From a virus (lineage: Duplodnaviria > Heunggongvirae > Uroviricota > Caudoviricetes): DNA of 64,000 nt. Numbering within the stretch: the first letter of the stretch is position 1; each line of letters starts with the position of its first letter. The notes beneath the pieces are model-generated. The model saw nothing but the letters and a program-made list of their open reading frames with translations, searched no databases and was not told the origin of the DNA. Shown in pieces: positions 7,232 to 30,638 of this stretch. Location: positions 64,001 through 128,000 of the IMG/VR virus record IMGVR_UViG_3300046787_000302; one strand, written 5' to 3'. The translations under genes were made by a program, and so were the position numbers.

Positions 7232-10200
7232 ATGGCAGAAGAATATCAACCAATAGCAGCTTCAGGTGCACCGATTCCTGAAGTTGATTTGGCAGCCTTA
7301 AATCCTACAGCAGCAATAGATCCTTTAGCTAACCTGCAACAAAGCATGGCTATTGGAGAATCTGATCGTATAGTTAGAAACTCTATCGCAGATCTTAAGC
7401 AAAGCTTGTCAACTCCGACAGCTGATGAAATGCTTCGTCCTATTGGTTACGATCCTATTGAGACTAATCGTGACAGATATGTTAACTCTGATTATTTTGG
7501 AGAGTTAGGTTTTAATCCTTTTAGTAATAACGAAGAGATCTATGGTAATGCACAAACTAACTTTAATAAGTTAAAGAATGCGTTTACCGGGATGGGTGCT
7601 TTAGCTTGGCATCAAGCAGTTGATCAGTTTAAAAGCTGGGGTAATACCTTTGATGTATTAGGTACTCAAGAGATGAGCAGTGCTTTTCAGCAAGCTGAGA
7701 TGGAAGAGTTATCTCGTCGTCAGAATGAGATGCTTAATGCTAATCCAATATTTGAGACACAAGCAGATAGAGAGAGCATCTTTAACTTTAACACTATTGC
7801 AAATACTGTACAGCAGTCTGGTTTTGCAGTTGGTGCTATTGCTGAGATTGCAGCTGAAGAAGCAGCATTAACTTATTTAACTGCTGTTACATTTGGTGGT
7901 GCTAGTGAGTTACAAGCCGCTCGTACAATAAAACTTGCTAGTAATATTGGTAAAGCTGCTCGTAGAACCGCTGAGTTATCTGAGAGTATTAACAGTGCTT
8001 CAAACATGCGTAAGGCATTTAATGCAGTGCAGAAAGCAGCACAGTTAATAAATCCTGTTGATAACGTAATGGAGTTTGCATCAGGCTTTAAAGCAATGCG
8101 TAGAGCTGATGAACTAGCTTATGGTGCTACAAAAGTATCATCATTACGTACAGCAGCTAGAGGCTTTGGATCTTTATATAGAGATGTTAGAGAGTTTAAC
8201 TTAGCTGTATCTGAAGCAAAAGCTGAAGCAGCTGGTACTTATACAGAGTTATCAGAACAAATGACTGATAACTTTGAGACTAAGTATGGTAGAAAACCTA
8301 CTGATCTTGAGTTAAAAGATATCAATGATGAAGCATTAAGAGGAGCTCAGTCAAATGGTGCTGCTAATACTGCTCTTATCTTGATGTCAAACAAGTTAGC
8401 TTTTGGTAATATCCTTAAAGGGTTTAAGCCTTTACGCTACATGATGGATGAGGATATCATGAAAGGCTTAGCTGTAGTATCAGATAAAGATGCATTAAAG
8501 CTTGGTAAGAAAGTAATTGAAGCTGGTGATAACCGTTGGTTATATTACAAGAATGCAATCGTTAGTAATCCATTAAAGTATCTTGGAGCTAACTTATCAG
8601 AAGCTTTGCAAGAGAATGCTCAGAGTATTTCAAACGATGCTGTTAAGTCATGGTACATGGCTAAGTACAACGGTCAAGAGCTAGACTCTAAGTTTGATGC
8701 TATTCGTGAAGCAGCCGGCAATCAGTTTACTACTGAAGGTGCAAAGACATTTATATCTGGATTCTTTACAGGAGGCTTACTTGGTGCAGGATCAAAAGCA
8801 TTTGAACAAGCAGGTTCTATACAACAATACTTTACAGATAAGAAAGGTTACGAAGATCGTAAAGCAAAAGAACAAGCTGCACGTACATCAGTAAAGAATA
8901 CTGTTAATCAGATTTATGCTAACCCTCTAAGTTATAACTATAACAAAGATAATGCTGCTGCCCAGGCCAACTTTGCAGCAATGTTAAAAGAGTCTGCGAT
9001 TAATAAAGACAAGAAAGCATTCAATGATATACAAGATGACGCAACTCGTCACTTTATACTTACTGGTATTAATACTGGTATGCTTGATTTGTTAAACGAT
9101 CGATTAACTGATTACGTAAAGAACTTAAACGAGAACGAGTTTACTGAAGCTTTTGGTGTTGAATACACAAAAGAGAATCATGCTGACATGGTTAAGCAAA
9201 CTCAGGTATTTGCTAAAAGAGCTGAAGAAGTAAAAGAGATTCACTCAAAGCTTTCTTCTGATTACGCTAATCCGTTTAATCCGGGTAACTTCAAGCATGG
9301 TACAAAAGAATACATAAAAGAAGCTATGAGTCATGTTGCTTATAAAGAAGCAATCAATCAGCTTACTTTTATGCAGGATACTTATAACCGTGCAATTACT
9401 CGTCAGCAAGAAGTATTAGACGGCATAAAGACTAAACCTGGTTTTGAAAACGTTGGGTTTAATGATATCTACAGTTTAACATCGATAAGTCACTTAGCTA
9501 ACGAGATAGATCTTTTAAGAAAAGAAGTAGAAGCTACTGAAGACAAAAAGATCAAAGCTGAGAAAGAGAAGAAGATAAAGCAGTTAGATAAGTATAATGA
9601 CGACTTGATCTCTTACTTAGATAAAGTAGATGAGATTAATGCAAACAAAGAGCTTGATCCAAAGAAGAAGTCTGAAGAGTTAACAGCTGCTTTAGATGCT
9701 TTCACAAAAGAAGCATTACCAACATTTACTTCTCAGATTAACGATCAGTTAAAAAAGGCAGGTAAACAACCAGTACAAGATAATAGTGCTCGTGCTGCTT
9801 TTGAAAACTTAACTGATTACTTCCATCTACAAGGAGATCATGAAGCTCTTTTACAGAACATCAACTACATTGTTGACCCAATAAACTTTTCTGAGTATTT
9901 AAACCGTCACAATGAAGAGATGGTGAAGTACTTCGAAAACAAGATGAAGGTTGATAAGAAGAACGAGAAGGAGAGAGCAAGAGATAAAAGAACTGCTGAA
10001 GATGCTTTATCTGGGGCAGTAGTTCCGGAAGATGGAGAAGGAATAGATGAGTCAGATCTTACTGAAGAAGATGATTTTGAGACAGAAGTACCAAACGGTG
10101 GTAGTATCAATGTTGAAGAACTTGTTAAAGAGTTAAAAGACGCTTATGCTGCTGTTGTTAAGTCACAACTAGAAATAGTTAGTGATTTTGAAGGTAGTAG

Positions 10201-13200
10201 TATAATGCTACCATCTGCTTTTCTTGGCTTTTCAAATAAGGCAACTCAGATACTTGTTAACTATGGAGTATCTAATAAAGACTTTACGTTTAATATTGCA
10301 AGACCAGATAGATCAAACTATCAGAATGTTGAGTTTACATACACTGGAGCTAAGTCATCAAACTCTGCAAATACAGAAGTAGAGGATTTAGATCTTGATG
10401 TTGAAACAGTTGATGAAACAACTGAAGCAACTGATACACCTGAAGCAGTTCAAACAACTGAACCGGTTGATACTACAACAGAAACTCCAGTAGTTACTGA
10501 GCCTGTAACAGAAGACGAAAACGTTGATCCAGAGCAAGAAGAGTTTGATAATAATCCGGAGAATAGTACAGAAGTTAATGGTACTAAGTTTATACTTGGT
10601 CACTATATAGTTCTTACTGATGGATCAGATACTGCTTTAAAGATTATATCTGTTACTCCGGATAAAGTATGGGCTATTCATGGAACGGAGAGTGAACTTG
10701 AGTTTAGTACTGATGAGTTATCTGATATGCTTACAAAAGGTCAGATTCAGATTGTGGCTAATCCAACTGCAAAGAAAGTGACTACTCCTGTTGAAGAAGT
10801 TACTGAGACACAGAAGAAAGATCTAAAAGATAAAAAAGCAGTACAGGAAGAAGATGCTGACTTTGACGACTTAGAGTATACGGCAGATAACGTTGGTTTT
10901 TCTTATGCAAGAAAAGATTCAGATGGGTCAACAGTATACGAAGACTCAAGAACACCAATAAGTTCTGGTTCTAAGATTAATAACTCTTCAGATAACTTTA
11001 CTGTATACACAGATAAGAAAGGTGTTCGTCGTCTTAAGAGAGGTGATTCAAAAGAATCATATCCATTAATAATGGGTACTTCTCGTATTAAGTTTGGTAC
11101 ACCACTAACTTTTGAGATAGATGTAAACATTGATGATTTTGATGACTACGACTATGTTCAACAGACTGGTATTACAAAACGTAAGAAAGCTGACTTCTTT
11201 AATGCAGACGGCTCAATAAAGCCTGAAGCTATTGATGATTTTCCAGTTGCTATCTATACTGTTGAAAACGGTAAAAAGATAAAGCTTGGGTACTTACCAA
11301 CAGTTAAGTTTGTTACTGCTCGATACAATGACTCAGGAGTCCTTGCTCATACAAAAGAGTTTACAACTACTGAAGACGGTGATAGTGTAAACAATCTTGA
11401 GGTACAGACTAATGCTATAAAAGAACATAGAAAGTCTTTATTTAACGGATACAATACGAATCCTAACGCTGTATTTACATCTTCTGTAACCTTTAAGTCT
11501 AACGGCGTATTAAGAACGGACGGTGTAAAGAAACCTTTGATACAAGCATTAAGTAAGAATACACGTATTGCTATTATCAAACAAGGTCGTGTTCATGTTA
11601 CTGATAAGCATTTTGAAACGGATCTTTACATACCTGAGATTATTACTCAAGGTAAGTCGAGCGGATGGCCTGTTGCTATTATTCCAACTCCATCAGGAAA
11701 GAGTCTTGCGTCATTAGTTACTGTTCCTCAGTTAAAACCAGAACGACTTGATTTTATTCTTGGAGCCTGGACTGCATTCCATACTTATAATACTACAACT
11801 GCTAAGTCACAGCAAGCAACAAAGAAAGATCTTGATATTATAAAAGCTGTATACAAAGCATACGATATTGAGTTTATCGATGGGGAGACTGCTGACTTTA
11901 AAACGTTAAGTAACTACATCAATGACTACGTTACTCATACAAGTTCAGTACAGTATAATCCAATGCTTCAAGGTAAGGGTCACTTTAACATCACACCAAA
12001 AGGATTGCTTAGTGTTTGGAAAGTAAACACAGGTGATAAGAAGAAGGATAGTGTTGTTATAGGTAACTTAACTGAGATAAGTGAAGAGAAAATCAATAAG
12101 TTTTACGATATTGCAGCAAACTTAAGACAAAGTATTCGCTTTGGTACTGAGCAATCTGCAGGTGTTGGTAACGATAAGATGATGACTGTGTTATCTGTTG
12201 ATCCTGATACTGGTGTTTTGACTGAATCAAAGCCTATGACTTATAATGATTATATGTTACAGACTCTTGAAACAACATTAGAAGAGGGACGTCCTTACGA
12301 TGAGAATAATACTGAAGCAGATGAGTTAATACACTTTGCTAATCCAGTTGTTGTATTTGGTAAGATTGATAGTCAGGCTCCATCTACTGGTGCTAAACCA
12401 ACAGAAGCACCAAAAGCTCCTGCTCCGGTTACTCCAGTTGCTCCGGTATCTCCTGCTAATGGAGTTGCTGCAATACAGTTTACTGATTCATCAGTACAGA
12501 TTAAACCTATTGTTATTGAAGGTAGTGCTTACAATGTAGTTAATACTTCAATGCGACCAAAAGCATTAGTTGATATTAATGGTACTATTGTTCCTTTCTA
12601 TATTACAAGTGGTCTTGGTGGAAAAGGTTTAGAACCTGGTTGGTATCCTTTCTTTGGTATTGGTAAAGATGGTTGGATGAATAAGACAGATAAGTCTGAT
12701 ATGGAAACATATTATGAAAGATACTGGGGAGCAGAAGCTGCAAGTAAGATTAAAGGTATTGCAGAAGAGCTTAATGCTTTTTATGGTACTGATTCTAAAT
12801 CTTTTGAAGATGATAAGCATCCAACAATAACAGAGAAACCTTTAAGTGCTTTAGCTGATGCTGTTGAAGATCATATTAACGAACAACTTTCTGTAACACC
12901 TGCACTTAATAATGGAGATGCAAGAAAAGTTTTACGTAGTAATGTGGAGCAGTTAGGTAAAGAGATTACTACAAAACAGGCTGATAAAGTCGCTGATTCT
13001 GCGTATATTAATGTAACGGATCAGTCTAAATCAGAGACTGGATTAACTCAAGAAGAAGCTTTAGCTAAGTTTATGGATATGGACTTTGGACAACAGTTTG
13101 GAACTAACCAGACAGTTGACAAAGATGTCGTAAAAGGTAATGAAGATGAGTTAAAGTCAGTAGCAACCACTACACAGAAACTACAGGAAGAGAATAAACT

Positions 13201-13219
13201 TAACAAGAAGTGTAACTAA
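7232..13219 (+). CDS. Giant virion/ejected protein (1995 aa)
   Basis: Long ORF with Ala/Gly-rich hydrophobic segments in the N-terminal third, an acidic T/E/P-rich linker and a C-terminus ending KKCN; directly precedes the RNAP as in crAss-like ejection gene blocks. Confidence 0.65.
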   Translation: MAEEYQPIAASGAPIPEVDLAALNPTAAIDPLANLQQSMAIGESDRIVRNSIADLKQSLSTPTADEMLRPIGYDPIETNRDRYVNSDYFGELGFNPFSNNEEIYGNAQTNFNKLKNAFTGMGALAWHQAVDQFKSWGNTFDVLGTQEMSSAFQQAEMEELSRRQNEMLNANPIFETQADRESIFNFNTIANTVQQSGFAVGAIAEIAAEEAALTYLTAVTFGGASELQAARTIKLASNIGKAARRTAELSESINSASNMRKAFNAVQKAAQLINPVDNVMEFASGFKAMRRADELAYGATKVSSLRTAARGFGSLYRDVREFNLAVSEAKAEAAGTYTELSEQMTDNFETKYGRKPTDLELKDINDEALRGAQSNGAANTALILMSNKLAFGNILKGFKPLRYMMDEDIMKGLAVVSDKDALKLGKKVIEAGDNRWLYYKNAIVSNPLKYLGANLSEALQENAQSISNDAVKSWYMAKYNGQELDSKFDAIREAAGNQFTTEGAKTFISGFFTGGLLGAGSKAFEQAGSIQQYFTDKKGYEDRKAKEQAARTSVKNTVNQIYANPLSYNYNKDNAAAQANFAAMLKESAINKDKKAFNDIQDDATRHFILTGINTGMLDLLNDRLTDYVKNLNENEFTEAFGVEYTKENHADMVKQTQVFAKRAEEVKEIHSKLSSDYANPFNPGNFKHGTKEYIKEAMSHVAYKEAINQLTFMQDTYNRAITRQQEVLDGIKTKPGFENVGFNDIYSLTSISHLANEIDLLRKEVEATEDKKIKAEKEKKIKQLDKYNDDLISYLDKVDEINANKELDPKKKSEELTAALDAFTKEALPTFTSQINDQLKKAGKQPVQDNSARAAFENLTDYFHLQGDHEALLQNINYIVDPINFSEYLNRHNEEMVKYFENKMKVDKKNEKERARDKRTAEDALSGAVVPEDGEGIDESDLTEEDDFETEVPNGGSINVEELVKELKDAYAAVVKSQLEIVSDFEGSSIMLPSAFLGFSNKATQILVNYGVSNKDFTFNIARPDRSNYQNVEFTYTGAKSSNSANTEVEDLDLDVETVDETTEATDTPEAVQTTEPVDTTTETPVVTEPVTEDENVDPEQEEFDNNPENSTEVNGTKFILGHYIVLTDGSDTALKIISVTPDKVWAIHGTESELEFSTDELSDMLTKGQIQIVANPTAKKVTTPVEEVTETQKKDLKDKKAVQEEDADFDDLEYTADNVGFSYARKDSDGSTVYEDSRTPISSGSKINNSSDNFTVYTDKKGVRRLKRGDSKESYPLIMGTSRIKFGTPLTFEIDVNIDDFDDYDYVQQTGITKRKKADFFNADGSIKPEAIDDFPVAIYTVENGKKIKLGYLPTVKFVTARYNDSGVLAHTKEFTTTEDGDSVNNLEVQTNAIKEHRKSLFNGYNTNPNAVFTSSVTFKSNGVLRTDGVKKPLIQALSKNTRIAIIKQGRVHVTDKHFETDLYIPEIITQGKSSGWPVAIIPTPSGKSLASLVTVPQLKPERLDFILGAWTAFHTYNTTTAKSQQATKKDLDIIKAVYKAYDIEFIDGETADFKTLSNYINDYVTHTSSVQYNPMLQGKGHFNITPKGLLSVWKVNTGDKKKDSVVIGNLTEISEEKINKFYDIAANLRQSIRFGTEQSAGVGNDKMMTVLSVDPDTGVLTESKPMTYNDYMLQTLETTLEEGRPYDENNTEADELIHFANPVVVFGKIDSQAPSTGAKPTEAPKAPAPVTPVAPVSPANGVAAIQFTDSSVQIKPIVIEGSAYNVVNTSMRPKALVDINGTIVPFYITSGLGGKGLEPGWYPFFGIGKDGWMNKTDKSDMETYYERYWGAEAASKIKGIAEELNAFYGTDSKSFEDDKHPTITEKPLSALADAVEDHINEQLSVTPALNNGDARKVLRSNVEQLGKEITTKQADKVADSAYINVTDQSKSETGLTQEEALAKFMDMDFGQQFGTNQTVDKDVVKGNEDELKSVATTTQKLQEENKLNKKCN

Positions 13220-13220
13220 T

Positions 13221-16200
13221 ATGGCATGTTTATATAACATCAATGGTTCTGAGTTTTCAGAAACAGAAGTTAAGCAACTTTTAAAGAGTGCTGCAACTTT
13301 ACCTGGTAACGAAGGCTTGTCAGATGATCAGCTTTTAGATCTAGTAAAAAGTGCAGTTGAAGATCGTTTTGTTAATATTAACTTATTCAATCTTGTTCAA
13401 GAGCAGTCTATTACTAACGCTATCTTTTCTCAGTTTGTTGATGAGATTGGTTTATTAAAACCAGGTGGTAAGTATGAGAAGTCATCTCGTATATTGTTTG
13501 CTGAGATCAAAAGTAAACTAAAGAACTCTGCCTTAAAGATTAAGTACTTTACTGATAATATAGCAAAAGACGAAGAGTCTTATAACAAGTTAAAAGAGTC
13601 AGCAAACGAAGCAATGCTTGCAAAGATTCCTGAACTTGGTATTCTTGATTATAAAGAGTTCTCTTATCTTGGAGAACTACTAGATAACGTTACTGATGAT
13701 ATTAACTTTGATCGATTCACAGAACAAGTAGCAATAAAGCTTAATCGTTTAGGACTACGTATTAATACAGATAGTCAAGTAGAAGATTTTGGTTTAACTG
13801 CTGATTACTATGAGAGTTTACTTGTTGATTCAGGTGAGTTGTTTGGTGATGATGATGTTGATGTTGAAGATAACTCAGTAAATGAAAGCTTTACTGATGC
13901 ACGTTCGTTTCAGATGAATCCGAAAGATACTGCTACAACTCGTGTAAAGCTTTTATTTTCAAGTATTAAGAGTGACAAAGCTAATCTATTAGGTCTAGCT
14001 GATTTCGTTGCTTACGATCAAGTATTTGAAGACTTGTTAGTATTAGGTGCTGGCTTACAACATGTGACTTACGATGCTTTACAAGAAGCTCTTATTGAAA
14101 AAGCTCAGGTTAAACCTTACTTATTAAACGTACACAAAAAGCTTGGTCAATTACAAGCTGAGAATAATGTACAGTTGATTAATGAAGTTCTTACAGTAAT
14201 TAATAAAGCGTACACTGATCATACCATGTTACTTTGGAAACAAAGTGAAGAGGGTGGTATCAGCATGCGTGTTATTAGTTCTAACCGTAATAGCGTTATT
14301 CGTCAGATTAAAACTGACTGGTTAGAGTTACAGAAAATGTCTGTTCTTATTACAAAGAACAAGTTTGGTAACTTAGTAATTAACACTGATCTAGCTAATA
14401 AGTTAAAAGAAGAATACTTAGAAGTACGTCAAGGTAATAGTATCACAAAGAAGAAAGAGTTTTTAAAAAAGCTTTTTGCTTCGATGAATATTCCTGTTGA
14501 TGATGCTTATATTACACACATTAATGATGCGATAAAGAAAAAGAGGTTTAGAACTTTCAAGACTAGCACTCTTTCTGATATGTTTTCAACAGGTAACATT
14601 GTTGATAATATCATTACTACATTAACTAAGGATGTCGACACTCAGTCTGAAGCAGCAAACTACGAAGATAAGAACAACCCAATTGTTCACGAGCGAGTAT
14701 TTAACATATTTGCAGATCTTTACTACGATCTTCACTCAGATGTTTATCAGACTGGTAGTTATACAAACGGAGAGAATAAAAACATCTTTGCTTATGTTCA
14801 ACCTTCTTACTTAGAAACAGTAAAAAAGAAGTTAAAGACAAAAGAGTTCTTAGATGTTCTTGCTAATCGTGCTTATAGTAAAAGCTCTGAAGCAGTTCGT
14901 CGTTTAAGAGAAGATGAAACAAACAGTGATGATAGTTTCGTATTTAGCTTAAGTTACTCTGATAGTATTAAAGCAGATGAAAAAGGTGAGATAGGTAAAG
15001 TAAAAAAGAATCAGTCACAACGTGAGTTGATACTTGATAGTTACCTTAAGCATCAAAATAACTTTGGTAAGACTGGTTACTACAATACATTTACTTTATC
15101 TGATAAGACAGTAGCACCTGTATTACAGATAACAAAAGATAGTTTAGATCCAGCAAGTAGCTTTGCGTTCTTTAGAACTAAGCCTACTGTTCGTGAGTCA
15201 TTTGAGTTCAAGGATTCTTTTAAGAATAAGTTATACGACTTAGCACAAGCTGAGATTGATCGTATGATTGCTTATGCAACTTACAAGAAGAAAGATAAGT
15301 TACGCATAGCTAACTTTGAAACAGCAAGTAAGATATTCTTTTTATTCCCGGTATTAAACAATCGTGCTGACGGTAAGCTTAATGCTATTCGTACTAAGAT
15401 CTACCAAGGTGTTGAACCTTCATCTGAAGATGCAGATTACTTAAAGACACTTATTGGTGAGTCAATAAAGGAGGATGTGCTAAAGGAGTTAGCTAACCTT
15501 ACTCGTAAGAATATTATAGTTAAAGGATCTACATCAGTTGATGACAATGGAAAAGTAAGTACAAACTACTCTTTCCCTTTCTTTAACAAGATCTACATGA
15601 ATCAGTTGTCTCAACTAGACTCATCACATCAAGCAATCTTTGCAATCGCAGATCTTAAGTATAACTTCTTGAGAGCTCAGATTAATACTACCCAAGTGTT
15701 AGGAGCTGACTTAGCTTTATTCTATAAGGAATCAAAGGTTGTTACTGCAGAGAAGATTAAAGATGCTTTTGGTGAGTCACTATCTGTTAATCAGTTATTG
15801 TCGTATAACGTATCAGCTGAGAACACACCAGAAGAATCAGCAAAGCGTAAGATTATAAACGATGTTATTAATAGTACTGTTTTAAGTACTACTGATGAGT
15901 TCTCAAAACGTGCTGCAATGTTTATTGCCCCAGGTTCTCAAGGAACTACAAAGTGGCAAGGAACAGATGGTAAGATTGTTGATATCTCTTTATACAACAT
16001 GCTTACACTAAAAGATGTTGTTAAGTCAAACGAGTTCTTTTCAAAGATTGAGATTACGGATGCTCAAGAGTTTGTTACTGTTGAAGAGCATATCAATCGT
16101 ATGATGTCTGAAGGTAGACTTCCATTAGATATATACGAGTCTATAAAAGCAAAGATTGCAAAAGCTGCAAAGAATAAGTCTTACGATTATACATTAACAG

Positions 16201-19200
16201 ATATTGAGCTTGGTTTTGTATTACAACCAACAAAGCCTGTACATTCGTCTAACTCTGAGATAGATGGGTTTAACGAGATCAACTATGTTAAGTCTTCTGC
16301 TTATCCTCTTATCCCAGATAACACACGTGGTTCAGAAATGAACAAGCTTCGTATGTTTATGGAGAAGAACAAAGTAGGTTCTGCTGCTTTTAAATCAGCA
16401 ACAAAGACGGGTTCTCCTGTACAGTTACTTGAAGTATTTGATACAGACGGTAACTTTATTGAACCTACAAAAGCTGAACTAGCAGGAAACATACAAGAGT
16501 TATCACGCGAAGGATTACGTACACAGCAAGAGATTCCTCATCAGAAAGAATTAATCAACGTTGTTAGTCAGATGGACCGTCAGTTATTTGAAGGTTCTCT
16601 TGACGTTACTGACTTTGAGTTAGCTGGTCAAAAGTTTAATACTGCTCAGTTCAAGTCACTAAAAGAAAGAATACGTACAGAGTTATTTGAACGTAACGCT
16701 TCTGAGTTACTTGAGAGGATTGGTATAACTATCAACGAAGACTTTGTTACTTTTAAGAGCGAACGTAGCTTAGCTCGATTGTTAAAAGAAGAAGCTATTG
16801 ATCGTAACATGAGTATAAACGATATCAAAGCTATTGCCACAAACAAAAACGGTAAGCTTGTTATCCCGGTGTACTTATTAAGTAACAGTGCTAAGTTTGA
16901 AGGATTACTTACTTCTTTGTTTAGTAAAGTTGTTAAACTAAAAGTTACCGGAACATCTCTTGTTCAAGTATCTGCAGTTGGTACAAAGCTTTCTGAGTCT
17001 GAGCTATCAGATAAGATAAAGAACGAGATTGTATATACTGAGTACTATGATCCGGAAAAAGGGTTACAGTACATTAGAAGAACAAAAGCTGCAAAAAACA
17101 GAAAAGCAAAAACAGAGGCTGCTCAAGTATTTGTATCTCAGTATTTAAAAGACGAAGACGGTAATCTGATTAACTTGAAAGACTACGCTGAAGCAGATGC
17201 ATCAGGTCGTTTAGTTCTTGATCAAGATAGAATACCATCAAAGTTATTAGAACTTATTGGTGCACGTATTCCTAATCAGTTGCACTCATCAATGTTACCT
17301 ATTGTTGTTGCAGGTTTCTTACCATCATATATGGAGAACACTATTATTGTTCCAGATGGTATTACAGCTCAGATGGGTTCTGACTTTGACGTTGATAAGT
17401 TATATGCTTACTTATCTAATCCTACATATAACTACAAGTATACTGCTACTGTTGAGATTGATGCTTTAAAAGAGCAGAAGAAAACTATTCTTGATGAGTA
17501 CAAAGACTCTATTCAGAAGCTTGACGACGAACTAAAAGGCTTATTAAACGATGAGCAACAGTCTGAGATCAAAAAGCTTAACGATAGCATCGATAAGTAT
17601 AGAGCTCGTTTAGGTTATAAGAATCTTGCTGAGAAAGAGCGTGAACAAAAACAACGTATCCTTGATAGCTTATATGAAAAAAGATCTGCTATCTATGATG
17701 AAGTAGCAAGTGGCTCTGAGCGTAAGAAACTTAATCAAGCAAAGTATAAGTTAAAGCAAGAAAGAGCTGCAAAGCTATCTGAGATTAACGATAAGATAAA
17801 AGAGATACGCAAGAATAACATCGAGTCTCTTGATGTTGTTAACTATGCGTTGAACGAAGACATGAGTGTTAGAAATCTAAACACTTTTGATCTTTCTCAA
17901 CTATCTGAAAGTGAGTTACTTGAGATGTATAAAGATATTCACTGGTCTGTGCTTAATCATGCAAAGACCTTTGATAAGATTACAACATCTATTGACTTGT
18001 CTGACTATGAAGATGAGAAGAAGTATTTCTATGAGAACGGTATTGTTGAGTTACCAACTAACTTCTTACCTTTTGACTATAATACACAGATCAATACTTT
18101 CTTGGATAACAGAAGTGGTAAGTTAGGTACTGGTATATTTGCTCAGTTGCTTTCTTTCCTCGCAGAACACCAGGACAAAAAGAATGTTGCTTTTGGTAGT
18201 ACAGGTATTACGATTATAAAAGATAACGGTGAAGAGATTCTTTTAAACAGATTAACAGCAGAAGGTAGTACTACGTTTAAGAGTGATGCAACACTTAATA
18301 CTTTAACAAGAACAAAGACGCAAAACGTATCAGCTTCTCTTAATGAGTCTCTTGATAATGCAAAGAACAAGAACCTTAACGTGTTTAATATTAACTCGTT
18401 ATCAATGGCTCCTGCAAAGCTTCTATTGTCTTTAAGTTCAGATCAGGGAGAGATTGCTGATATTCGTTATGTTACTCGTTTCTTTCCTCAGTATATTCTG
18501 AAGTATCTAAATGAGCAGGAAGAGATTGCAAAAGATTCTTTCTCAACTCGCAAAATGTACTCATCTGATGTTATAAAAGAAGTTAAGTTTAAGTTTATTA
18601 ACTTACTTACTCCTCAAGCACAAGACTTAGCTACCCCTGAGAATATTGAAAAAGTGATGCTTCACTCACCAGATGAGTTATTAAACTTACTAAAGCAAGA
18701 AGCTCGCTTAAGACCTCGTCTTAATCAGTTGATGTTAGCTTATGATCCAGCTGTTGTTAAGATGCAGCCAGTTGAGAGAAAAGAACTTGATGAGTATATC
18801 ATGAAGCAGCTTGGCATTTTAACTTACTACGAGAGACTACAATCCTATAGTGTTCCTCAATCTACGTTGATGAATAATAGCAATGTAATCAGTCAAGGTA
18901 TTGGTTCTGATCTATTTAGCTTCTTAAATAAATATCGTAAGTTCCAATCCATATCAAGAGCTGCAGACTCAGTTAACGGAGAAGGTTTACCTGTCGTAAT
19001 ACAGAATCCATATGGTGAAGCAGAGGTTGTTGATAACTTGATTAACATTGGTGATATCTTTGGTACATTTGAAGTTGATGATATGACCGGCACTGTTGAC
19101 TTCAAACCAACAACTCAAACAGGGCATGCTGTTAATAATAGTTTAGTTCTTGCTCATAAAGTATTAAGTAAGATTGCACCAATACACTTTGATCCTGTAT

Positions 19201-21737
19201 TCCAGAATCTTTTAGAAGAGATTGTATTACAGAAAAACAAAGGTAAAGGTGGTGTTGATAACTATGGTAAGATTAAGTTTGCTGCGATGGCTCAAAACAT
19301 CATGGAAAACTTAAAAGCTTATATTGATAGTACACAAGACTCTGGTTTTATTACTGATGATTTAGTTAGTGAAAGAAACAGATTGCTTATTGGTACTGAT
19401 AAGAATCCTTCTTTGGCTGAGCGTATTGTTCAAGCTTCAATCAAGCATCCTGAGTTAAGAAACAACTACTTCTTTGCAAGGTTAAAACCTGTTATTCCTA
19501 CTTCTAAATCAAGAATGAGTATTAAAGGTGTTCAGTACAAATCGCCTTTTAGTCAAGACATTGATGAGCTATCTAATAATAAAGGCTTCTTAGATCTTAT
19601 CTTGAACGAGAATGAAGATATATCAAGCATCGGTAAAGACTTGATTAAGTATGCTTATGTTACAGGTGCTAGTGCTGATAAGTCTTCTTTCTTTAGATAC
19701 ATACCTATTGAGTTAAGACTACTTAATAAGAAGCACTTAGAACACGTTAGTAAGTTCCAGGAAACGTTTAAGATGAACGTTGATAACTTCTATGATCAGT
19801 TTATCATGAACAATCCTGATATGGCTTCTTATGTTGATAGAAAAGCTTTTACTGCTTTAAACAATCCATCAACGATTACTAGAGGTTCTAATGATGAGTT
19901 TATCTACTCCTTGCCAAAAGGTAGAGAAGATCTAATGATTGCTGGTAGTATTGATGATTTAGTTAGTGGTAATAAGTCAACTGTAAAGACTTATCCTAAG
20001 TTTATACGTCATATTAGTAACAATCAGTTGTTTTTGTTTAAACGTATTGGAGAAAGATCTTATAAGAGAATATCAACGTTAGGTACAGAACTAGCATCTG
20101 AATATGAGTTAGGTGTTAATGCAGATCAGATGACATCTGTTCACTTTGCTAACTTACTCCCATCTCAAAAGCTTAACCGTATTGTTACTAATGAAGAGAA
20201 TCCTTTTATTATTTTTTCTGGTAATGTAAGTTTAGTTACAGATGAAGCTGATTTAGCAAACTATGCAACAACTGCAGTTAGTTACCCAACAGATCCTAAT
20301 AACCCTCAAGCAAAACATAGAATACTATCAACAGTATACAAGACTAACATAAACAACGAAGAGTTTACAGACAAAGACGTTGTGTTATTTAATGGTGATA
20401 GATTCATTGATGTTTTACCAGGCGATGCTAAACTAAATCATATCACTCGCCGTGATGCAATAGATACTTTATCTACGGTATTTGAAGAGATGTACAAGCC
20501 TAAGTTAGAAAGTGTAATAAAAGCAAAAGCTTCTGTTGTACTTTATACAAAAGCTGAGGGTATCTCAACAATGATACAATCTTATCTTGAAGGTAAAGGT
20601 TATAAAGCATCTGAGATTGGTCAGTTCAATAATGTATTGATGACTTATGGTGAGCCAGGTACAGTACCTTCATCAGAAGAGTTTACTCCTTTCTCTGAAC
20701 CAGATGATCTATTTACACCAGATGGTTTTATTGCAGGTATTGATGAAGATGTTGATGTAGTACCAATGAGTATGTTTGGTCTTGCTAGTGGTCCTGACCC
20801 TGAAGTTTTCTTGAGTGGTGAAGTTTCTTCTGCTACTGAAGGGTCTGCAGTAGAGTCTGATCAACAAGTCTTTGAGAAATACATCCCAGATACTAATGGA
20901 GTTAATACTCTTGCTTCTGTCTTGACTAAGTTAAAAGCAAATACAAACAACGACTTCTACAAGATTCTTATCGATAGCTTAAAAGCAACTGGTGATGTAT
21001 CAAAGATATCTGTTGTTCTTTCAACAAGTATTACTGATCCTGCACTTTATAATACAATCACTAATCAGATTGTTATTAACCCAGACTTAGCTTTAACAGA
21101 TAACAGTACTAAGTCAAGAGCTGAAAATCTTGAAGACTTGATTGTTCATGAGTTACTGCATGGTTATACAGCTCAGTCATTGTTTAAACTATCATCAAAA
21201 GGTGCTAAGTTTAATGTTGAAGGTGAGCGTATGTACGCTACTTCAGTAAAGAAACTATTCTTACTTGCGCAAGAGTCTGTATTAAAGAACGAAGTTCATA
21301 GTGCAAAGTTAAAATCTGTTATTGCAAAGATTAATGACAGTGTATTTAACACTGAAGCAGACAATCGATTAACAGAAGAAGAAAAGAGCATGTACTATGG
21401 CCTTACATCTGAGCATGAGTTTGTTAGTATGTTAATGACAGATAAGGGATTCCAAGAGTTTATGAATACCATTATGGTTGATTCTTCTGGTAAGTCAGTA
21501 GTATCTAAGTTTGGTGAGATCTTGAAACGTTTACTTACTGCTTTAACAAAAGCTCTTGGTATCCAAGTAAAAACAGACTCAGTTTTAGATCAAGGTATTA
21601 AAAATATAACTAACTTGCTTAGTGTTATCGATAATGCATCTGATACACAAACAAAAGATAACGGTCAGATGCCACTGTTTAGCATTGCAACATCAGATCA
21701 GATTAATGAATACGCTTTAAACAATCAATGTAAATAA
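13221..21737 (+). CDS. Virion-packaged single-polypeptide DNA-dependent RNA polymerase (crAss/phi14:2 gp66-like) with C-terminal zincin-like domain
   Basis: GARIPNQ...S followed by GSDFDVDKL (DFDVD at 17382-17396), matching the DxDxD catalytic loop (DFDID in phi14:2 gp66); HELLH at 21147-21161 with downstream EHEF; 2838 aa. Confidence 0.88.
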   Translation: MACLYNINGSEFSETEVKQLLKSAATLPGNEGLSDDQLLDLVKSAVEDRFVNINLFNLVQEQSITNAIFSQFVDEIGLLKPGGKYEKSSRILFAEIKSKLKNSALKIKYFTDNIAKDEESYNKLKESANEAMLAKIPELGILDYKEFSYLGELLDNVTDDINFDRFTEQVAIKLNRLGLRINTDSQVEDFGLTADYYESLLVDSGELFGDDDVDVEDNSVNESFTDARSFQMNPKDTATTRVKLLFSSIKSDKANLLGLADFVAYDQVFEDLLVLGAGLQHVTYDALQEALIEKAQVKPYLLNVHKKLGQLQAENNVQLINEVLTVINKAYTDHTMLLWKQSEEGGISMRVISSNRNSVIRQIKTDWLELQKMSVLITKNKFGNLVINTDLANKLKEEYLEVRQGNSITKKKEFLKKLFASMNIPVDDAYITHINDAIKKKRFRTFKTSTLSDMFSTGNIVDNIITTLTKDVDTQSEAANYEDKNNPIVHERVFNIFADLYYDLHSDVYQTGSYTNGENKNIFAYVQPSYLETVKKKLKTKEFLDVLANRAYSKSSEAVRRLREDETNSDDSFVFSLSYSDSIKADEKGEIGKVKKNQSQRELILDSYLKHQNNFGKTGYYNTFTLSDKTVAPVLQITKDSLDPASSFAFFRTKPTVRESFEFKDSFKNKLYDLAQAEIDRMIAYATYKKKDKLRIANFETASKIFFLFPVLNNRADGKLNAIRTKIYQGVEPSSEDADYLKTLIGESIKEDVLKELANLTRKNIIVKGSTSVDDNGKVSTNYSFPFFNKIYMNQLSQLDSSHQAIFAIADLKYNFLRAQINTTQVLGADLALFYKESKVVTAEKIKDAFGESLSVNQLLSYNVSAENTPEESAKRKIINDVINSTVLSTTDEFSKRAAMFIAPGSQGTTKWQGTDGKIVDISLYNMLTLKDVVKSNEFFSKIEITDAQEFVTVEEHINRMMSEGRLPLDIYESIKAKIAKAAKNKSYDYTLTDIELGFVLQPTKPVHSSNSEIDGFNEINYVKSSAYPLIPDNTRGSEMNKLRMFMEKNKVGSAAFKSATKTGSPVQLLEVFDTDGNFIEPTKAELAGNIQELSREGLRTQQEIPHQKELINVVSQMDRQLFEGSLDVTDFELAGQKFNTAQFKSLKERIRTELFERNASELLERIGITINEDFVTFKSERSLARLLKEEAIDRNMSINDIKAIATNKNGKLVIPVYLLSNSAKFEGLLTSLFSKVVKLKVTGTSLVQVSAVGTKLSESELSDKIKNEIVYTEYYDPEKGLQYIRRTKAAKNRKAKTEAAQVFVSQYLKDEDGNLINLKDYAEADASGRLVLDQDRIPSKLLELIGARIPNQLHSSMLPIVVAGFLPSYMENTIIVPDGITAQMGSDFDVDKLYAYLSNPTYNYKYTATVEIDALKEQKKTILDEYKDSIQKLDDELKGLLNDEQQSEIKKLNDSIDKYRARLGYKNLAEKEREQKQRILDSLYEKRSAIYDEVASGSERKKLNQAKYKLKQERAAKLSEINDKIKEIRKNNIESLDVVNYALNEDMSVRNLNTFDLSQLSESELLEMYKDIHWSVLNHAKTFDKITTSIDLSDYEDEKKYFYENGIVELPTNFLPFDYNTQINTFLDNRSGKLGTGIFAQLLSFLAEHQDKKNVAFGSTGITIIKDNGEEILLNRLTAEGSTTFKSDATLNTLTRTKTQNVSASLNESLDNAKNKNLNVFNINSLSMAPAKLLLSLSSDQGEIADIRYVTRFFPQYILKYLNEQEEIAKDSFSTRKMYSSDVIKEVKFKFINLLTPQAQDLATPENIEKVMLHSPDELLNLLKQEARLRPRLNQLMLAYDPAVVKMQPVERKELDEYIMKQLGILTYYERLQSYSVPQSTLMNNSNVISQGIGSDLFSFLNKYRKFQSISRAADSVNGEGLPVVIQNPYGEAEVVDNLINIGDIFGTFEVDDMTGTVDFKPTTQTGHAVNNSLVLAHKVLSKIAPIHFDPVFQNLLEEIVLQKNKGKGGVDNYGKIKFAAMAQNIMENLKAYIDSTQDSGFITDDLVSERNRLLIGTDKNPSLAERIVQASIKHPELRNNYFFARLKPVIPTSKSRMSIKGVQYKSPFSQDIDELSNNKGFLDLILNENEDISSIGKDLIKYAYVTGASADKSSFFRYIPIELRLLNKKHLEHVSKFQETFKMNVDNFYDQFIMNNPDMASYVDRKAFTALNNPSTITRGSNDEFIYSLPKGREDLMIAGSIDDLVSGNKSTVKTYPKFIRHISNNQLFLFKRIGERSYKRISTLGTELASEYELGVNADQMTSVHFANLLPSQKLNRIVTNEENPFIIFSGNVSLVTDEADLANYATTAVSYPTDPNNPQAKHRILSTVYKTNINNEEFTDKDVVLFNGDRFIDVLPGDAKLNHITRRDAIDTLSTVFEEMYKPKLESVIKAKASVVLYTKAEGISTMIQSYLEGKGYKASEIGQFNNVLMTYGEPGTVPSSEEFTPFSEPDDLFTPDGFIAGIDEDVDVVPMSMFGLASGPDPEVFLSGEVSSATEGSAVESDQQVFEKYIPDTNGVNTLASVLTKLKANTNNDFYKILIDSLKATGDVSKISVVLSTSITDPALYNTITNQIVINPDLALTDNSTKSRAENLEDLIVHELLHGYTAQSLFKLSSKGAKFNVEGERMYATSVKKLFLLAQESVLKNEVHSAKLKSVIAKINDSVFNTEADNRLTEEEKSMYYGLTSEHEFVSMLMTDKGFQEFMNTIMVDSSGKSVVSKFGEILKRLLTALTKALGIQVKTDSVLDQGIKNITNLLSVIDNASDTQTKDNGQMPLFSIATSDQINEYALNNQCK

Positions 21738-21739
21738 GT

Positions 21740-24700
21740 ATGGCTTGTCTTATCAAAAGAAAAAACGGTTTAATCTCTGAAGTATATCTTCCAGGTGGAA
21801 AAACTCCGTCAACTTCTTACTATGATATCTTAAATACAATAGAGACAAAAGGTGTACCGGCTGAACATGCTGGTAACCTTAATGCGTCTTTACAAAAGCT
21901 AAGAGGTAAGTATATTAAGAACACAACTCAATCAAGTGAAGTAGCTTTGGGTATATACTTAACAATGTATACACCAAAGTTTCAATCTTGGTATGGTCAG
22001 TGGGCTGTTGAGCCAACTATTAACTCTGATTTTACAGTTACAAAAGACGGTGTTAAGCGTTCATTGTTTGACTTCATGGAGTTTACTCACTCATTAGACG
22101 CTAAGCTATACTCAAGAAGAACAAAGTCTTTAAAAGGATTGCTTCCAACAGTAAAGCTGATGCGTGATGAGTTAAAAGATCGTATCAAACAACATATTGA
22201 CGCTAGAGAAAGAGCAAAGCTTAATAAAGATTACACGAGAGAACAGAAGATTGAGCGTGAGAAGTATTACAATGCTTTGATCAAACGTCTTAATGAGCAG
22301 ATTGATACTATACAGAAAGAGAACAGTATCAAGATAGTTGTATCTCAAGGTCTTGCCGATATCGAAACTATTCGCGAGATGCTTTCTGGGTCAGTTGTTT
22401 CTCTTAGTGAGCTATTACTTGCTGATGATATTATAAAGACATGGACAAACTTAGAGCGTTTGTTTAACATCCCTAATATCATGGAAGTACCTGCTGATAA
22501 AGACGGTACGTTTACTACTAGAGATACATTGATTGAGATTAACAATGCAGCTAGATCTTTTGATAACAAGATTGCTTACTTTGCAAAGCAAGAGTTGATA
22601 AACAAGATTAACAAAAACGCAAAGGAAGGACAAGAGATTACGATTCGAGATATTGAATCAATGAAAGATGTTAGTAAGATCCAGTTATATACTCGTGATA
22701 TTACTACTGTTGATAACAAGCTTGTTGGATATCTTGCCAAGTTGATTACTCAAGTTAATATGCGTATTGAGAAAGAGCATAACCGTAACTATAGAAAGAT
22801 TGACGAAGAGACTGATAAGATAAAAGAACATCCTTTGTTTAAGCAGCTTGGCTTTGATTTATTCATAAAAGAGCAAACAACAAAAGATGGCTTTGGTCAA
22901 GAGACTAAAACACTTGGTTTTAAAGGTAGATTTTCTCAGGACTGGTATGAAGCTGTAAAGAAAAGATATCGCTTACTAAAAGAGAATCTAGATACAGCAA
23001 AGGACAACAAAGAAGTTGTTACTGCTATCTGGGCTGATCACAACAGATGGGTAAAAGAAAATACTATTGCTTTTAACTCATCTCCTTTTATCAATACAAA
23101 GGCTCATACTGACGAAGAACGATTAGCTATTATTAATAGCTTAAAGGTTCAAGGTTTTACTGCTGAGGAAATAAACGACTTTGTTAAACAATCAAGAGCT
23201 CGTTATAGTCAGTATCTTAAAGATGCAGAGACTTTTGGTATCAGTCTTCAAGATGATATCATAAAAGAAATAGTAGTGCTTCAACCTGAAGATGGTACTG
23301 AAGAAGAGTATATCCAAAAGCAAGTTGAAGAGTGGAAGAAGATTAACGACCCTATTGCTTATAACGATCTAATAAACGGAGCTTTAAAGTTCTCAGAAGC
23401 TGGTATTACAAAAGGTAGTAAGTACTCTATTAAGATTCCTCGTAAGATGATTGATGGTAGTGAGACAAGCTACTATGATCAAGACTTTGCAAAGATTGCT
23501 GCAGATAAAGATCTATACAACTTCTATGTATTCTTCCGTGACTTTATGAAGGAACAGCTTTCATATTTACCTGAAGACGAGATTGATTCTTTACAGTCTA
23601 ATTTCTTACCAGTAGTAACGGAGCGTTTAAGTAAAGAGTATGGCCTTACTAGTTTAAAAGAAGGTATAAAGGGTATGGATGATTGGTTCTTTAAGAACTT
23701 AACAACTATTGATTATCAAACTGCAGGTAAAGCAGACCCTATCAGTGGTATAACAAGACATGGTTTTACTCCTCGTTTTATAAATGAGAACGTCCCAGTA
23801 GAGCAGCGTAGTAAAGACCTTAATACTATTGCTAAGCTGTTTAGCGATATGGCTCTTATCTATAAGCATAAGATTGCTGTTCAAGATACAGTTGATAGTA
23901 TAAACAATATTGTTCAATCAGCAACAGCTTCAACAGAATCAGTAAGATTAAAAGGAGATAAGGTAGTAAGTAAAGCTCCAAAGAACTTACAAGAGATGGT
24001 TGATAGCACAGTACTAAGAGCTTTCTATCGAGTTAATCCTGAAGCTCAGGGTGTTATGGATAGACCTTTCTACAACTCATTAGAATTATTAACACTTGGT
24101 ACATATAAGTCAGAGAAATATAAGCAAGCAAAAGCTCTTGAAGAAGAGATAGCAAAGCTTAATCAAGAGTTAGAGACAAACAATAAGCTAACTACAGCTG
24201 ATCGTAAGCTAATCGAAAAGAACATTCAGTTAAAAGTAGATGCTTACTATGAACTAGGTGGTAGAAACCTTAGTGTTAGTAGTGTTGTTGATGCAATGAA
24301 TAAGTTTACAAGAGAAAAAGGTATTGCCTTTAACCCATTCTCAGCTATCCGTAACTTAGCTGTTGGTGGTGTCAATAACTGGATTCATGCAAAAGGTAAA
24401 GAGGACTTTGATAGTGCACAGATGGCAAAAGCAACTGCAATGCTAAAAGGATCTATCACTAAGTATATGTCATGGGGAACAGTTGAGTCAAAGATGTCTG
24501 AGAAGATTCTAAGAATGATGCTTGACACAAAGACTATTGAAGGAGAAGATAATACTTTTGCTAGTACTATAAAAGGACTTAATGGTCAAAGCACTATTGA
24601 TGCTATAAAGAACGCTATCCCAAGTCCTTTTGCTTTGATGAAGTCAACAGACTACTTCTTTAGATCACAGACAGCTTTATCAATGTTGTTAAACACAAAA

Positions 24701-25558
24701 GTGACAACAACAAAAGGTGAGTTTAACCTATTTGAGATTCTTGATAATAACTTAGAAGTTAATACAGAAGAGTTTGGTGAGTGGAATGCTGAAGCAAACG
24801 AAGGTCAAAGTTTTGATGAGTTTTATGAATCAAGCATGATGAAGATTAACCAGGTATCAAAGAAACTACACGGTTTCTCTGGAGATGTTCAGTCATTAGC
24901 TGGTAAGGATAACATTATTGGTCGTGTGCTTTTTGTGTTTAGATCATGGTTGCCGGAAACGTTAGCTACTCGTTTTGAGAGTAAACGATATGATCCTATA
25001 TTAGAGAGAGATAGTGAAGGTTACTATAGAACATTTTTTGGTAACTTCATTAATGATAATGGATTGCGCATAAAAGATTCTATAGCAGAGATCATTGCTG
25101 CTTTAAAAACAGGAGAAGTAGAAGGACTTACTCCATTACAGGTAGCAAACATTAGAAAGATGATGGCTGAGTTAGCCGCTATCCTTGTGTTGACTGCTTC
25201 AGTAATGGCTTTATCAGCTTTACTTGGTAGTGATGACGATGATGAGGATAAGAAGTATGTTAACATACTCTTAAACCAGCTGATCTTGTTAAATCGTGAC
25301 TTAACATATTACATTAATCCATCTTCTGCAGGTGAGTTACTTCAGAACTTTGTTCCTATAACAGCTACACTTAATCAGACTACACAAGCAATTGTTGCGT
25401 CATCGTATTATTTAGCTCAAGTAGAAAAGACAGATGAAGAAGGAGTTCTTCAGTATGACGGTGAAAGAACATTACTAAAGATTAGTAAAGCTTTACCTTA
25501 TGTAAACAACGTTAACAGAGTAATATACTACTCAGGTCAAATGGGTAGCGTTAGATAA
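21740..25558 (+). CDS. Giant virion/ejected protein (1272 aa)
   Basis: Long helical ORF starting MACL, with a hydrophobic helix near the C-terminus (LAAILVLTASVMALSALLG) and an FRSWLP motif; last gene of the ejection block. Confidence 0.65.
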   Translation: MACLIKRKNGLISEVYLPGGKTPSTSYYDILNTIETKGVPAEHAGNLNASLQKLRGKYIKNTTQSSEVALGIYLTMYTPKFQSWYGQWAVEPTINSDFTVTKDGVKRSLFDFMEFTHSLDAKLYSRRTKSLKGLLPTVKLMRDELKDRIKQHIDARERAKLNKDYTREQKIEREKYYNALIKRLNEQIDTIQKENSIKIVVSQGLADIETIREMLSGSVVSLSELLLADDIIKTWTNLERLFNIPNIMEVPADKDGTFTTRDTLIEINNAARSFDNKIAYFAKQELINKINKNAKEGQEITIRDIESMKDVSKIQLYTRDITTVDNKLVGYLAKLITQVNMRIEKEHNRNYRKIDEETDKIKEHPLFKQLGFDLFIKEQTTKDGFGQETKTLGFKGRFSQDWYEAVKKRYRLLKENLDTAKDNKEVVTAIWADHNRWVKENTIAFNSSPFINTKAHTDEERLAIINSLKVQGFTAEEINDFVKQSRARYSQYLKDAETFGISLQDDIIKEIVVLQPEDGTEEEYIQKQVEEWKKINDPIAYNDLINGALKFSEAGITKGSKYSIKIPRKMIDGSETSYYDQDFAKIAADKDLYNFYVFFRDFMKEQLSYLPEDEIDSLQSNFLPVVTERLSKEYGLTSLKEGIKGMDDWFFKNLTTIDYQTAGKADPISGITRHGFTPRFINENVPVEQRSKDLNTIAKLFSDMALIYKHKIAVQDTVDSINNIVQSATASTESVRLKGDKVVSKAPKNLQEMVDSTVLRAFYRVNPEAQGVMDRPFYNSLELLTLGTYKSEKYKQAKALEEEIAKLNQELETNNKLTTADRKLIEKNIQLKVDAYYELGGRNLSVSSVVDAMNKFTREKGIAFNPFSAIRNLAVGGVNNWIHAKGKEDFDSAQMAKATAMLKGSITKYMSWGTVESKMSEKILRMMLDTKTIEGEDNTFASTIKGLNGQSTIDAIKNAIPSPFALMKSTDYFFRSQTALSMLLNTKVTTTKGEFNLFEILDNNLEVNTEEFGEWNAEANEGQSFDEFYESSMMKINQVSKKLHGFSGDVQSLAGKDNIIGRVLFVFRSWLPETLATRFESKRYDPILERDSEGYYRTFFGNFINDNGLRIKDSIAEIIAALKTGEVEGLTPLQVANIRKMMAELAAILVLTASVMALSALLGSDDDDEDKKYVNILLNQLILLNRDLTYYINPSSAGELLQNFVPITATLNQTTQAIVASSYYLAQVEKTDEEGVLQYDGERTLLKISKALPYVNNVNRVIYYSGQMGSVR

Positions 25559-25560
25559 AA

Positions 25561-25590
25561 GAAGAGGGGCTTTAAGGGCCCCTTTCTTAT
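25561..25590. terminator. Probable bidirectional intrinsic terminator between convergent genes
   Basis: GGGGC-TTTAAGG-GCCCC hairpin with a T-rich 3' flank and an A-rich 5' flank, between the stops at 25558 (+) and 25587 (-). Confidence 0.7.
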
Positions 25591-30234: not shown

Positions 30235-30615
30235 CTACTTCTTTTGTATCAAACCTGCATAATGAATAGTTACTGGCTGATCTTTACTGCGCATTAAGTC
30301 AACAAAGTCTAAGATCTCATTAGCATTATCAATATAATACTCATAAGATGTCTCCATTAAACGTCTTTCTTCAGCAAAAGGTGTGAACTCTTCAGGATCA
30401 CCTGCTTTTTTCTTTACTGGTATAATCTTTCCACGGTCATCAAGACGAGGTAAGAAGTGATACTTTTGTCTCTTCTCTTTTGAGATGACAGCTAAGATAC
30501 CTTGAGAAGGATCATAGATACATTCTGCAAAAGGACACTCCATGTTGATAGGAATCATGCGAAAACTATCAAGCTCTCCCCACTTTGAAGAGATAATAAA
30601 CATATTGTTTGCCAT
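30235..30615 (-). CDS. Hypothetical protein (126 aa)
   Basis: ORF with A/C-rich leader, in operon. Confidence 0.6.
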   Translation of the reverse strand: MANNMFIISSKWGELDSFRMIPINMECPFAECIYDPSQGILAVISKEKRQKYHFLPRLDDRGKIIPVKKKAGDPEEFTPFAEERRLMETSYEYYIDNANEILDFVDLMRSKDQPVTIHYAGLIQKK

Positions 30616-30638
30616 AAGGTTGGTTGGTTTTTTACAAA

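Follow-up and report, generated by a model that had tools for sequence, protein, structure and literature searches.

The tailed phage genome IMGVR_UViG_3300046787_000302 (Caudoviricetes; 130,037 bp in a single contig) carries a series of very large open reading frames (ORFs) along its plus strand, coding for proteins of 1042 and 952 amino acids (aa) and for three further proteins, here called A, B and C (Table 1). We analysed bases 64001-128000 of this genome, a stretch of 64,000 nucleotides (nt) referred to below as the window; positions are those of the window unless they are given as genome positions. The subject of the analysis is a set of four cysteine (Cys) residues which sit at the facing ends of A, B and C, and which probably tie the three proteins into one disulfide-linked chain.

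Protein B is identified from its sequence as a crAss-like virion RNA polymerase (RNAP), a two-barrel RNAP of the phi14:2 gp66 type. In a phmmer search of the PDB, residues 938-1445 of B match residues 967-1432 of 6VR4 chain A (E 4.6e-20), 6VR4 being the solved structure of phi14:2 gp66, and B also matches phrog_16227 (E 2.7e-38). Its DFDVD sequence fits the DFDxD form, which is the catalytic motif of crAss-like RNAPs according to the phi14:2 preprint (10.1101/2020.03.07.982082). The gene order A-B-C is the same as that of g067-g066-g065 in phi14:2; the packaging data come from phi14:2 and crAss001, not from this phage. Residues 839-1155 of C match crAss001 gp49, whose gene is annotated as 'RNA-polymerase subunit', and the domain at the N-terminus of the fused forms described below is of the same family as A. 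Pfam searches with an E cut-off of 0.01 gave no match to A, B, C, the 952-aa protein or the 1042-aa protein.

Table 1. Features of the large-ORF region, in window coordinates
Feature	Position	Strand	Details
3' part of 1417-aa ORF	2..1096 (genome 60843-65096)	+	start upstream of window
1042-aa Cys-free protein	1164..4292	+	residues 70-153 L-Ala-D-Glu peptidase-like, phrog_2307, E 2.5e-14
952-aa Cys-free protein	4348..7206	+	no family matches
Protein A, 1995 aa, 220.9 kDa	7232..13219	+	sole Cys 1994, codon 13211-13213
Junction 1	13211..13229	+	TGT AAC TAA T ATG GCA TGT (...KKCN, stop / MAC...), spacer 1 nt
Protein B, RNAP, 2838 aa, 319.7 kDa	13221..21737	+	Cys 3 (codon 13227-13229) and Cys 2837 (codon 21729-21731) only
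DFDVD, B residues 1388-1392	17382..17396	+	columns invariant in 30 aligned homologues
HELLH, B residues 2643-2647, C-terminal domain	21147..21161	+	H, E and H invariant in 30 homologues
Junction 2	21729..21748	+	TGT AAA TAA GT ATG GCT TGT (...NQCK, stop / MAC...), spacer 2 nt
Protein C, 1272 aa, 144.9 kDa	21740..25558	+	sole Cys 3, codon 21746-21748
GC-rich hairpin then T run on both strands	25563..25585	.	5 nt past C stop

Cysteines at the two junctions

The RNAP had been predicted to end in ...EYALNNQCK and to be followed 2 nt later by a protein starting MACLIK, and this is borne out by the junction DNA. The stop codon of B (21735-21737) is preceded by AAC AAT CAA TGT AAA and followed by GT, after which C starts at 21740 with ATG GCT TGT CTT ATC AAA. 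The original prediction that both junctions share one grammar also holds, the first reading ...AAG AAG TGT AAC TAA T ATG GCA TGT TTA (...NKLNKKCN, stop, then MACLYN). It had further claimed that Cys is lacking from the 952-aa protein and from the outer ends of the series. This is correct, as the 952-aa protein has no Cys and none is present near the N-terminus of A or the C-terminus of C. The DNA word TGTAANTAAN{1,3}ATGGCNTGT has exactly two matches in the 64-kb window, at 13211-13229 and 21729-21748, and none in 100 shuffles.

Together, A, B and C have only four Cys in 6,105 residues, namely A-1994, B-3, B-2837 and C-3. For four Cys placed at random over this length, the probability that one falls in each facing three-residue end is ~1.4e-12. 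Cys is also depleted in the region as a whole: the other window ORFs (31 of at least 150 aa) have 81 Cys in 8,957 residues, or 0.90%, and at this rate the six cargo ORFs (8,460 residues) would be expected to have ~76 rather than four (Poisson P ~9e-28). Over the whole genome, with A, B and C counted, Cys occurs within the first six residues of 6/113 ORFs and within the last seven of 8/113.

Terminal cysteines in relatives and at gene fusions

Relatives with as little as ~20% identity show the pattern, as do all four of the Crassvirales families that were sampled. Each of the 16 C homologues, down to 22% identity, has a single Cys, which is residue 3 in 15 of them and residue 4 in the other, and 15 of the 17 A homologues have a single Cys no more than seven residues from the end. 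For B, 138 homologues were found and 120 listed. Among the matches listed, 89 of the 90 stand-alone B proteins have Cys both at positions 3-5 and in the last three residues, with 44 internal Cys in 307,967 residues and none at all in 60 of the 89. When the end contexts of stand-alone B are compared (57 distinct N-terminal and 54 C-terminal), the Cys column alone is invariant, with S, A, I, H and other residues at position 2.

The rule is seen in Steigviridae (crAss001, phi14:2), Intestiviridae (Carjivirus MW067002, crAss002), Suoliviridae (cr53_1, cr118_1) and Crevaviridae (cr127_1), and also in Flavobacterium phage FpV4, the cyanophage Leptolyngbya phage Lbo-JY46 and the IMG/VR locus L006. 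The IMG/VR relatives L001 and L002 (80% identity), L003 (50%) and L004 (22%) likewise keep terminal-only Cys. A related-locus search with the C alignment added no further loci, and one with the B-C fusion P0114 found none; the genomic context of B-C was instead taken from the named genomes Carjivirus, crAss002 and cr127_1. The cleanest case is phi14:2, in which the sole Cys of g067 is its last residue, g066 (the crystallised RNAP) has Cys 3 and Cys 2179 of 2180 residues, and g065 has Cys 3 only. In crAss001, gp47 (2341 aa) has Cys 2339 alone and gp49 has Cys 5 alone. The numbers of N-type and C-type ends are balanced, at 2:2 or 1:1, in 12/13 genomes, FpV4 being the exception.

The proteins gp47, gp50 and gp49 of crAss001 and gp67, gp66 and gp65 of phi14:2 are related to A, B and C, follow the same Cys rule, and are packaged in virions as judged by mass spectrometry, which for gp47, gp49 and gp50 is reported for crAss001 (PMC10172136); they are expected to leave the particle in a partly unfolded state. 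The texts on crAss001 and phi14:2, supplements aside, do not mention terminal cysteines or links between cargo proteins. The preprint on phi14:2 (Drobysheva et al., 10.1101/2020.03.07.982082), again supplements aside, uses none of the terms 'Cys', 'disulfide' and 'disulphide'.

The fusion of these modules in other phages has already been described in the phi14:2 preprint, where the fused forms were supposed to be cleaved (10.1101/2020.03.07.982082). Their cysteines follow the break points. All ten B-C fusions among the matches listed (C-profile E 1e-62 to 1e-112) have an N-terminal Cys and no C-terminal Cys, and P0106, P0110, P0114, P0120 and P0122 have no other Cys at all. Eight of the nine A-B fusions listed lack the N-terminal Cys and have the C-terminal one. 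Among the long proteins keeping the C-terminal Cys alone, P0108 is the only direct match to the A profile; the other eight A-B fusions belong to family X, the profile of which matches that of A with 97.3% probability (E 2.5e-11), so that the link between X and A rests on one hhalign comparison. Matches of the X profile among B homologues are circular, these being the sequences from which the profile was built, but those in the independent sample described next are new sequences. There are also six proteins with unassigned N-terminal extensions.

For the independent sample, the conserved half of C was searched against 1.84 billion cluster representatives, which gave 1,806 matches at E up to 0.001, and the best 150 were analysed. 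An N-terminal Cys is present in 50 of 54 C-only proteins and in 26 of 28 B-C proteins. The 22 A-B-C proteins with an A-type (X) domain have no terminal Cys at either end; 19 of them are without any Cys in 4,738-6,139 residues, and all 22 together have three Cys in 117,298 residues. Eight proteins combine a long N-terminal extension with B and C and have no X match (one with N-terminal Cys, six Cys-free), and five are C proteins with more than 350 extra N-terminal residues (three with N-terminal Cys, two Cys-free); 33 fragments were set aside. None of the analysed proteins has a C-terminal Cys.

N-terminal Cys is tied to a B or C head, being present in 76/82 such proteins versus 0/22 with an A head (Fisher P = 2e-17). 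This distribution by head type indicates that the cysteines are confined to the points at which the polypeptide is broken, with one Cys on either side. A linked chain had been proposed from the junctions of a single genome, and the paired loss of Cys where genes are fused now lends that reading comparative support.

A proposed disulfide chain and its alternatives

We consider it probable that A, B and C are tied by disulfide links in the order A-S-S-B-S-S-C. The three proteins would be cargo, packed in the phage head and then injected, with A-Cys1994 paired to B-Cys3 and B-Cys2837 to C-Cys3. The stitched chain would have 6,105 residues (685.5 kDa) and the topology of one polypeptide, and would keep its three parts in a fixed order and at a ratio of 1:1:1. 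As the links would lie one to three residues from the termini, with other Cys purged, there would be no loop or branch to block the narrow portal and tail channel. The host cytoplasm is reducing, and the chain would fall apart on arrival. The disulfide would in this way replace the peptide bond that is kept by relatives with one giant three-module protein. Pairing of A with B and of B with C, rather than of A with C beside a circular B, is suggested because no other scheme also accommodates genomes in which the block is in two parts (A / B-C and A-B / C). The extreme terminal position of the Cys and their internal purge would also fit passage through a narrow channel in a partly unfolded state, and the cargo of crAss001 must partly unfold to pass, according to its authors (Bayfield et al. 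2023, PMC10172136).

A broader proposal, to which we give somewhat less than even credence, is that the disulfide serves as a reversible stand-in for the peptide bond, that the thread is injected in gene order, and that delivery and activation of the RNAP are redox-gated. A thread of at least 0.7 MDa would be made by translation, as in the Cys-free A-B-C fusions (up to 6,244 residues), or else by the end-to-end joining, after translation, of modules made separately, and the reducing cytoplasm of the host would both cut it and switch on the virion RNA polymerase. A stitch of this kind would be cheap to evolve, at one Cys per end, which would explain the free splitting and fusing of the gene block across the order.

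Disulfides between proteins have been seen in phage particles. Virions of crAss001 have inter-protein disulfides in the tail and in gp57 (PMC10172136). In the cyanopodophage A4 (Anabaena phage A-4L), cryo-electron microscopy has shown a disulfide between gp27 Cys1715 and gp26 Cys5 (PNAS 2025, PMC12002296), and in the A-4L record these are the sole Cys of gp27 (1717 aa) and gp26 (1114 aa). Like A, B and C, which are candidate ejection proteins, these two are products of consecutive large ejection-protein genes and have Cys only near the facing ends; unlike them, they form a set of two members rather than three and include no RNA polymerase. The A4 authors describe the one bond and give no comparative rule, Cys purge or link to fission and fusion (PMC12002296). 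The chain proposed here is strongly supported by comparison of sequences, and would be far more elaborate than the single bond of this unrelated podophage.

The N4-type polymerase is a single chain of ~3,500 residues and belongs to another, unrelated family of polymerases, and we know of no terminal-Cys rule in N4-like phages. As proposed for the phage described here, N4-like phages (Schitoviridae) carry a giant RNA polymerase in the head, which is expelled with ejection proteins to start transcription (PMC13434306). Two-chain bacterial toxins are alike in concept, in that an interchain disulfide holds the chains for delivery and is reduced in the target cytosol (PMC6899712). These proteins are unrelated and use another translocation route, and the likeness is one of analogy, not of relationship.

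Several points weigh against the disulfide chain. The pairing of ends is argued from parsimony across two-part and three-part genomes alone. We found no chemical or structural evidence in the literature for a cargo disulfide in crAss-like phages, and the main text of PMC10172136 reports no cargo-cargo link and uses 'cysteine' 0 times. The 58 other ORFs of the window yielded no thioredoxin, Dsb or Erv-type oxidase; with a reducing cytoplasm at assembly and no oxidase in the window, oxidation would have to be spontaneous. The A4 bond stabilises a folded pentameric ring and not a thread (PMC12002296). Homology between A4 and A, B or C was looked for and rejected, there being no blastp or hmmsearch match and hhalign probabilities of <1% for A, B, C and X against gp26, gp27 and gp28, so that A4 is a precedent by analogy only.

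Exceptions to the rule count on the same side. The A-B fusion P0134 has Cys at neither end, and the stand-alone B protein P0064 has the C-terminal Cys without the N-terminal one. Cys is absent from 4/54 C-only and 2/28 B-C representatives and from 2/17 A homologues. In crAss001, gp50 (2412 aa) has Cys 5, 1334 and 2404, the last of these nine residues from the end, and the Cys at position 5 of FpV4 gp30 is unpaired. The MSC start of Carjivirus and crAss002 is seen only if translation is taken to begin downstream of the annotated start, at the first in-frame ATG or an internal Met, as we infer. Some of the exceptions may be miscalled starts or fragments.

The facing termini might instead dock non-covalently, through a shared metal ion or the packing of an interface, within an ordered inner-capsid complex that is not threaded. 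Paired gain and loss with fission and fusion needs only that the ends meet, the conserved motifs beside the Cys (L-x-N-Q-C-K; M-x-C-P-N or M-A-C-x-Y) suggest a specific docking surface, and the C-terminal helix of A4 gp27 lies in a cleft of gp26 (PMC12002296). We nevertheless regard this as unlikely. One Cys per end would give a metal two ligands, with no His or second Cys nearby, and in the one solved analogue, A4, the cysteines are disulfide-bonded. The near-total purge of internal Cys from stand-alone B is also hard to explain unless thiol chemistry matters.

Slightly less likely still is that the terminal Cys act separately, each end being attached to or modified by something else, such as a lipid, DNA, a homodimer partner or a protein of the portal or capsid. 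The lone Cys of FpV4 gp30 would suit separate roles, as would a 'C-stop / MSC' junction between Cys-rich ORFs of the tail region (see below). However, separate roles do not predict the joint loss of both Cys at fusion points or the balance of N-type and C-type ends. Residues I, H, K, L and F are common at position 2, which indicates that the Cys does not become an exposed first residue, and signal peptide and lipobox are both absent.

The original prediction also raised the idea that the junction DNA is conserved as a signal for translational coupling. As a rival to the disulfide chain, such a signal would couple termination to reinitiation with the Cys as a by-product, or, in a variant, would direct recoding by stop readthrough. 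The spacers of 1 and 2 nt and the 19-20-nt word common to both junctions are in keeping with it, but the comparative data contradict it, and we consider it very improbable. Among relatives that keep the Cys pair, the genes are separated by a 1-nt overlap or by spacers of 1, 2, 3, 29, 43 or 519 nt. The spacers of L001-L004 are 1, 2, 3 and 43 nt, that of L006 is 519 nt and that of FpV4 29 nt, and in Carjivirus it would be ~130 nt if the downstream ATG is used. The synonymous codon TGC is used in L001, and the residues next to the Cys differ in these loci. More widely, the flanks range from MACL, MSCI and MACY to MICPN and MNYC at the start, and from CK, CN and CNG to C as the last residue at the end. 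The A homologue of crAss001, gp47, is encoded on the other strand from gp50 and gp49, and this and the variable spacers show that the rule is not a DNA coupling signal.

Conservation at the nucleotide level only, as opposed to that of the Cys pair, is thus absent, and the tight spacing and context of the window do not extend across relatives. The frame offsets of +1, +2 and 0 fit no single recoding event. The DNA word was also tried as a marker. It matched 88 stretches in IMG/VR, and of the 80 examined only 17 are ORF/ORF junctions (flanks open for >50 codons); in 15 of these 17 the motif Cys is the sole Cys within 50 residues on each side, and the other 63 matches are chance or unrelated. The 1-nt and 2-nt spacers of the window probably also couple translation. 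This would suit a 1:1:1 product, though the spacing itself is not conserved.

Ligation of the chains by a peptide bond, through a split intein or otherwise, is the least credible explanation, for although Cys near both ends and Asn before the tail Cys (..NNQCK, ..KKCN) look superficially intein-like, the Cys lie one to three residues from the ends rather than ~100 residues from the C-terminus and ~35 from the N-terminus as expected of split inteins, the residues after the tail Cys vary or are absent, and the lack of Pfam matches noted above means that no Hint/intein domain was detected.

Applications and neighbouring features

The Crassvirales are among the most abundant human gut phages. The delivery by these phages of ~0.7 MDa or more of protein, including the polymerase with which infection begins, through so narrow a tail still awaits explanation (PMC10172136). 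We found no earlier description of a terminal-Cys rule for Crassvirales in the literature, subscription-only papers and supplements aside. The terminal-Cys code is a hypothesis that can be tested in two cultured systems obeying the rule, phi14:2 and crAss001. It could also serve as a sequence rule for annotating cargo genes and correcting start codons (e.g. MSC in p-crAssphage-like genomes), and for telling true gene fissions apart from breaks in assembly or annotation. It may further offer a natural example of a reducible protein-protein stitch.

Of the large ORFs upstream of A, the 1042-aa protein is a candidate for an ejected cell-wall hydrolase, and probably acts as one. The 952-aa protein is candidate cargo which would lie outside the Cys chain. 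The product of the 1417-aa ORF is a candidate cargo or tail protein, with two Cys (437 and 442) in the whole protein and none in the 361-aa part that lies inside the window. The hairpin downstream of C is terminator-like and may mark the end of the cargo operon; two such hairpins were found against 0.1 expected.

The HELLH sequence in the C-terminal domain of B is, on its sequence, a zincin-like metallopeptidase signature without a Pfam match. In the Carjivirus record the annotator has placed a zincin protease on the A-type protein, and in the phi14:2 preprint it is placed on gp65 (10.1101/2020.03.07.982082). With the zincin located on B, on an A-type protein or on gp65, the module seems to move among the three proteins. 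Many stand-alone B proteins (P0033-P0132) hold extra enzyme domains in precomputed Pfam annotation, including helicase (PF13604, PF13245, PF13538), YbiA-like (PF08719), AlkB-like (PF13532) and SprT-like (PF10263) domains. These domain-bearing proteins still end in the ...NQCK type, which indicates that the tail peptide is kept even where a domain has been inserted before it.

Two of the relatives have irregular cargo genes. Those of cr53_1 contain 4-40 in-frame stops under table 11, and the terminal Cys rule holds in them all the same; the stops are consistent with stop-codon reassignment in late genes. In L006 an A-B homologue is split at 19042-20000 into ORFs of 3013 aa and 1479 aa, separated by ~960 nt without a long ORF in the same frame, which might be explained by an insertion, an intron or recoding. 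Carjivirus MW067002, a relative of p-crAssphage, has two genes annotated 'putative thioredoxin' (29491-29769 and 30495-30758), a few kb downstream of its cargo block.

Elsewhere in the genome studied here, a third junction of the 'C-stop / MSC' type lies outside the window (genome 50628-52585), with a 2-nt spacer between a 330-aa ORF ending ...ATTTC and a 320-aa ORF starting MSCPV. Both ORFs are Cys-rich (10 and 5 Cys) and without a PHROG match, and they adjoin a small ORF with tail-protein matches. A 169-aa ORF (genome 43002-43511) has its last residue as its sole Cys. Within the window, 44315-46066 encodes a cohesin domain (Pfam) and 43782-44315 has a weak lipoprotein match. At 40150-41329 there are two small ORFs which overlap, with matches to an FkbM-type methyltransferase and to a glycosyltransferase region of the DXD sugar-binding kind; they are probably phage genes for the modification of surface sugars.

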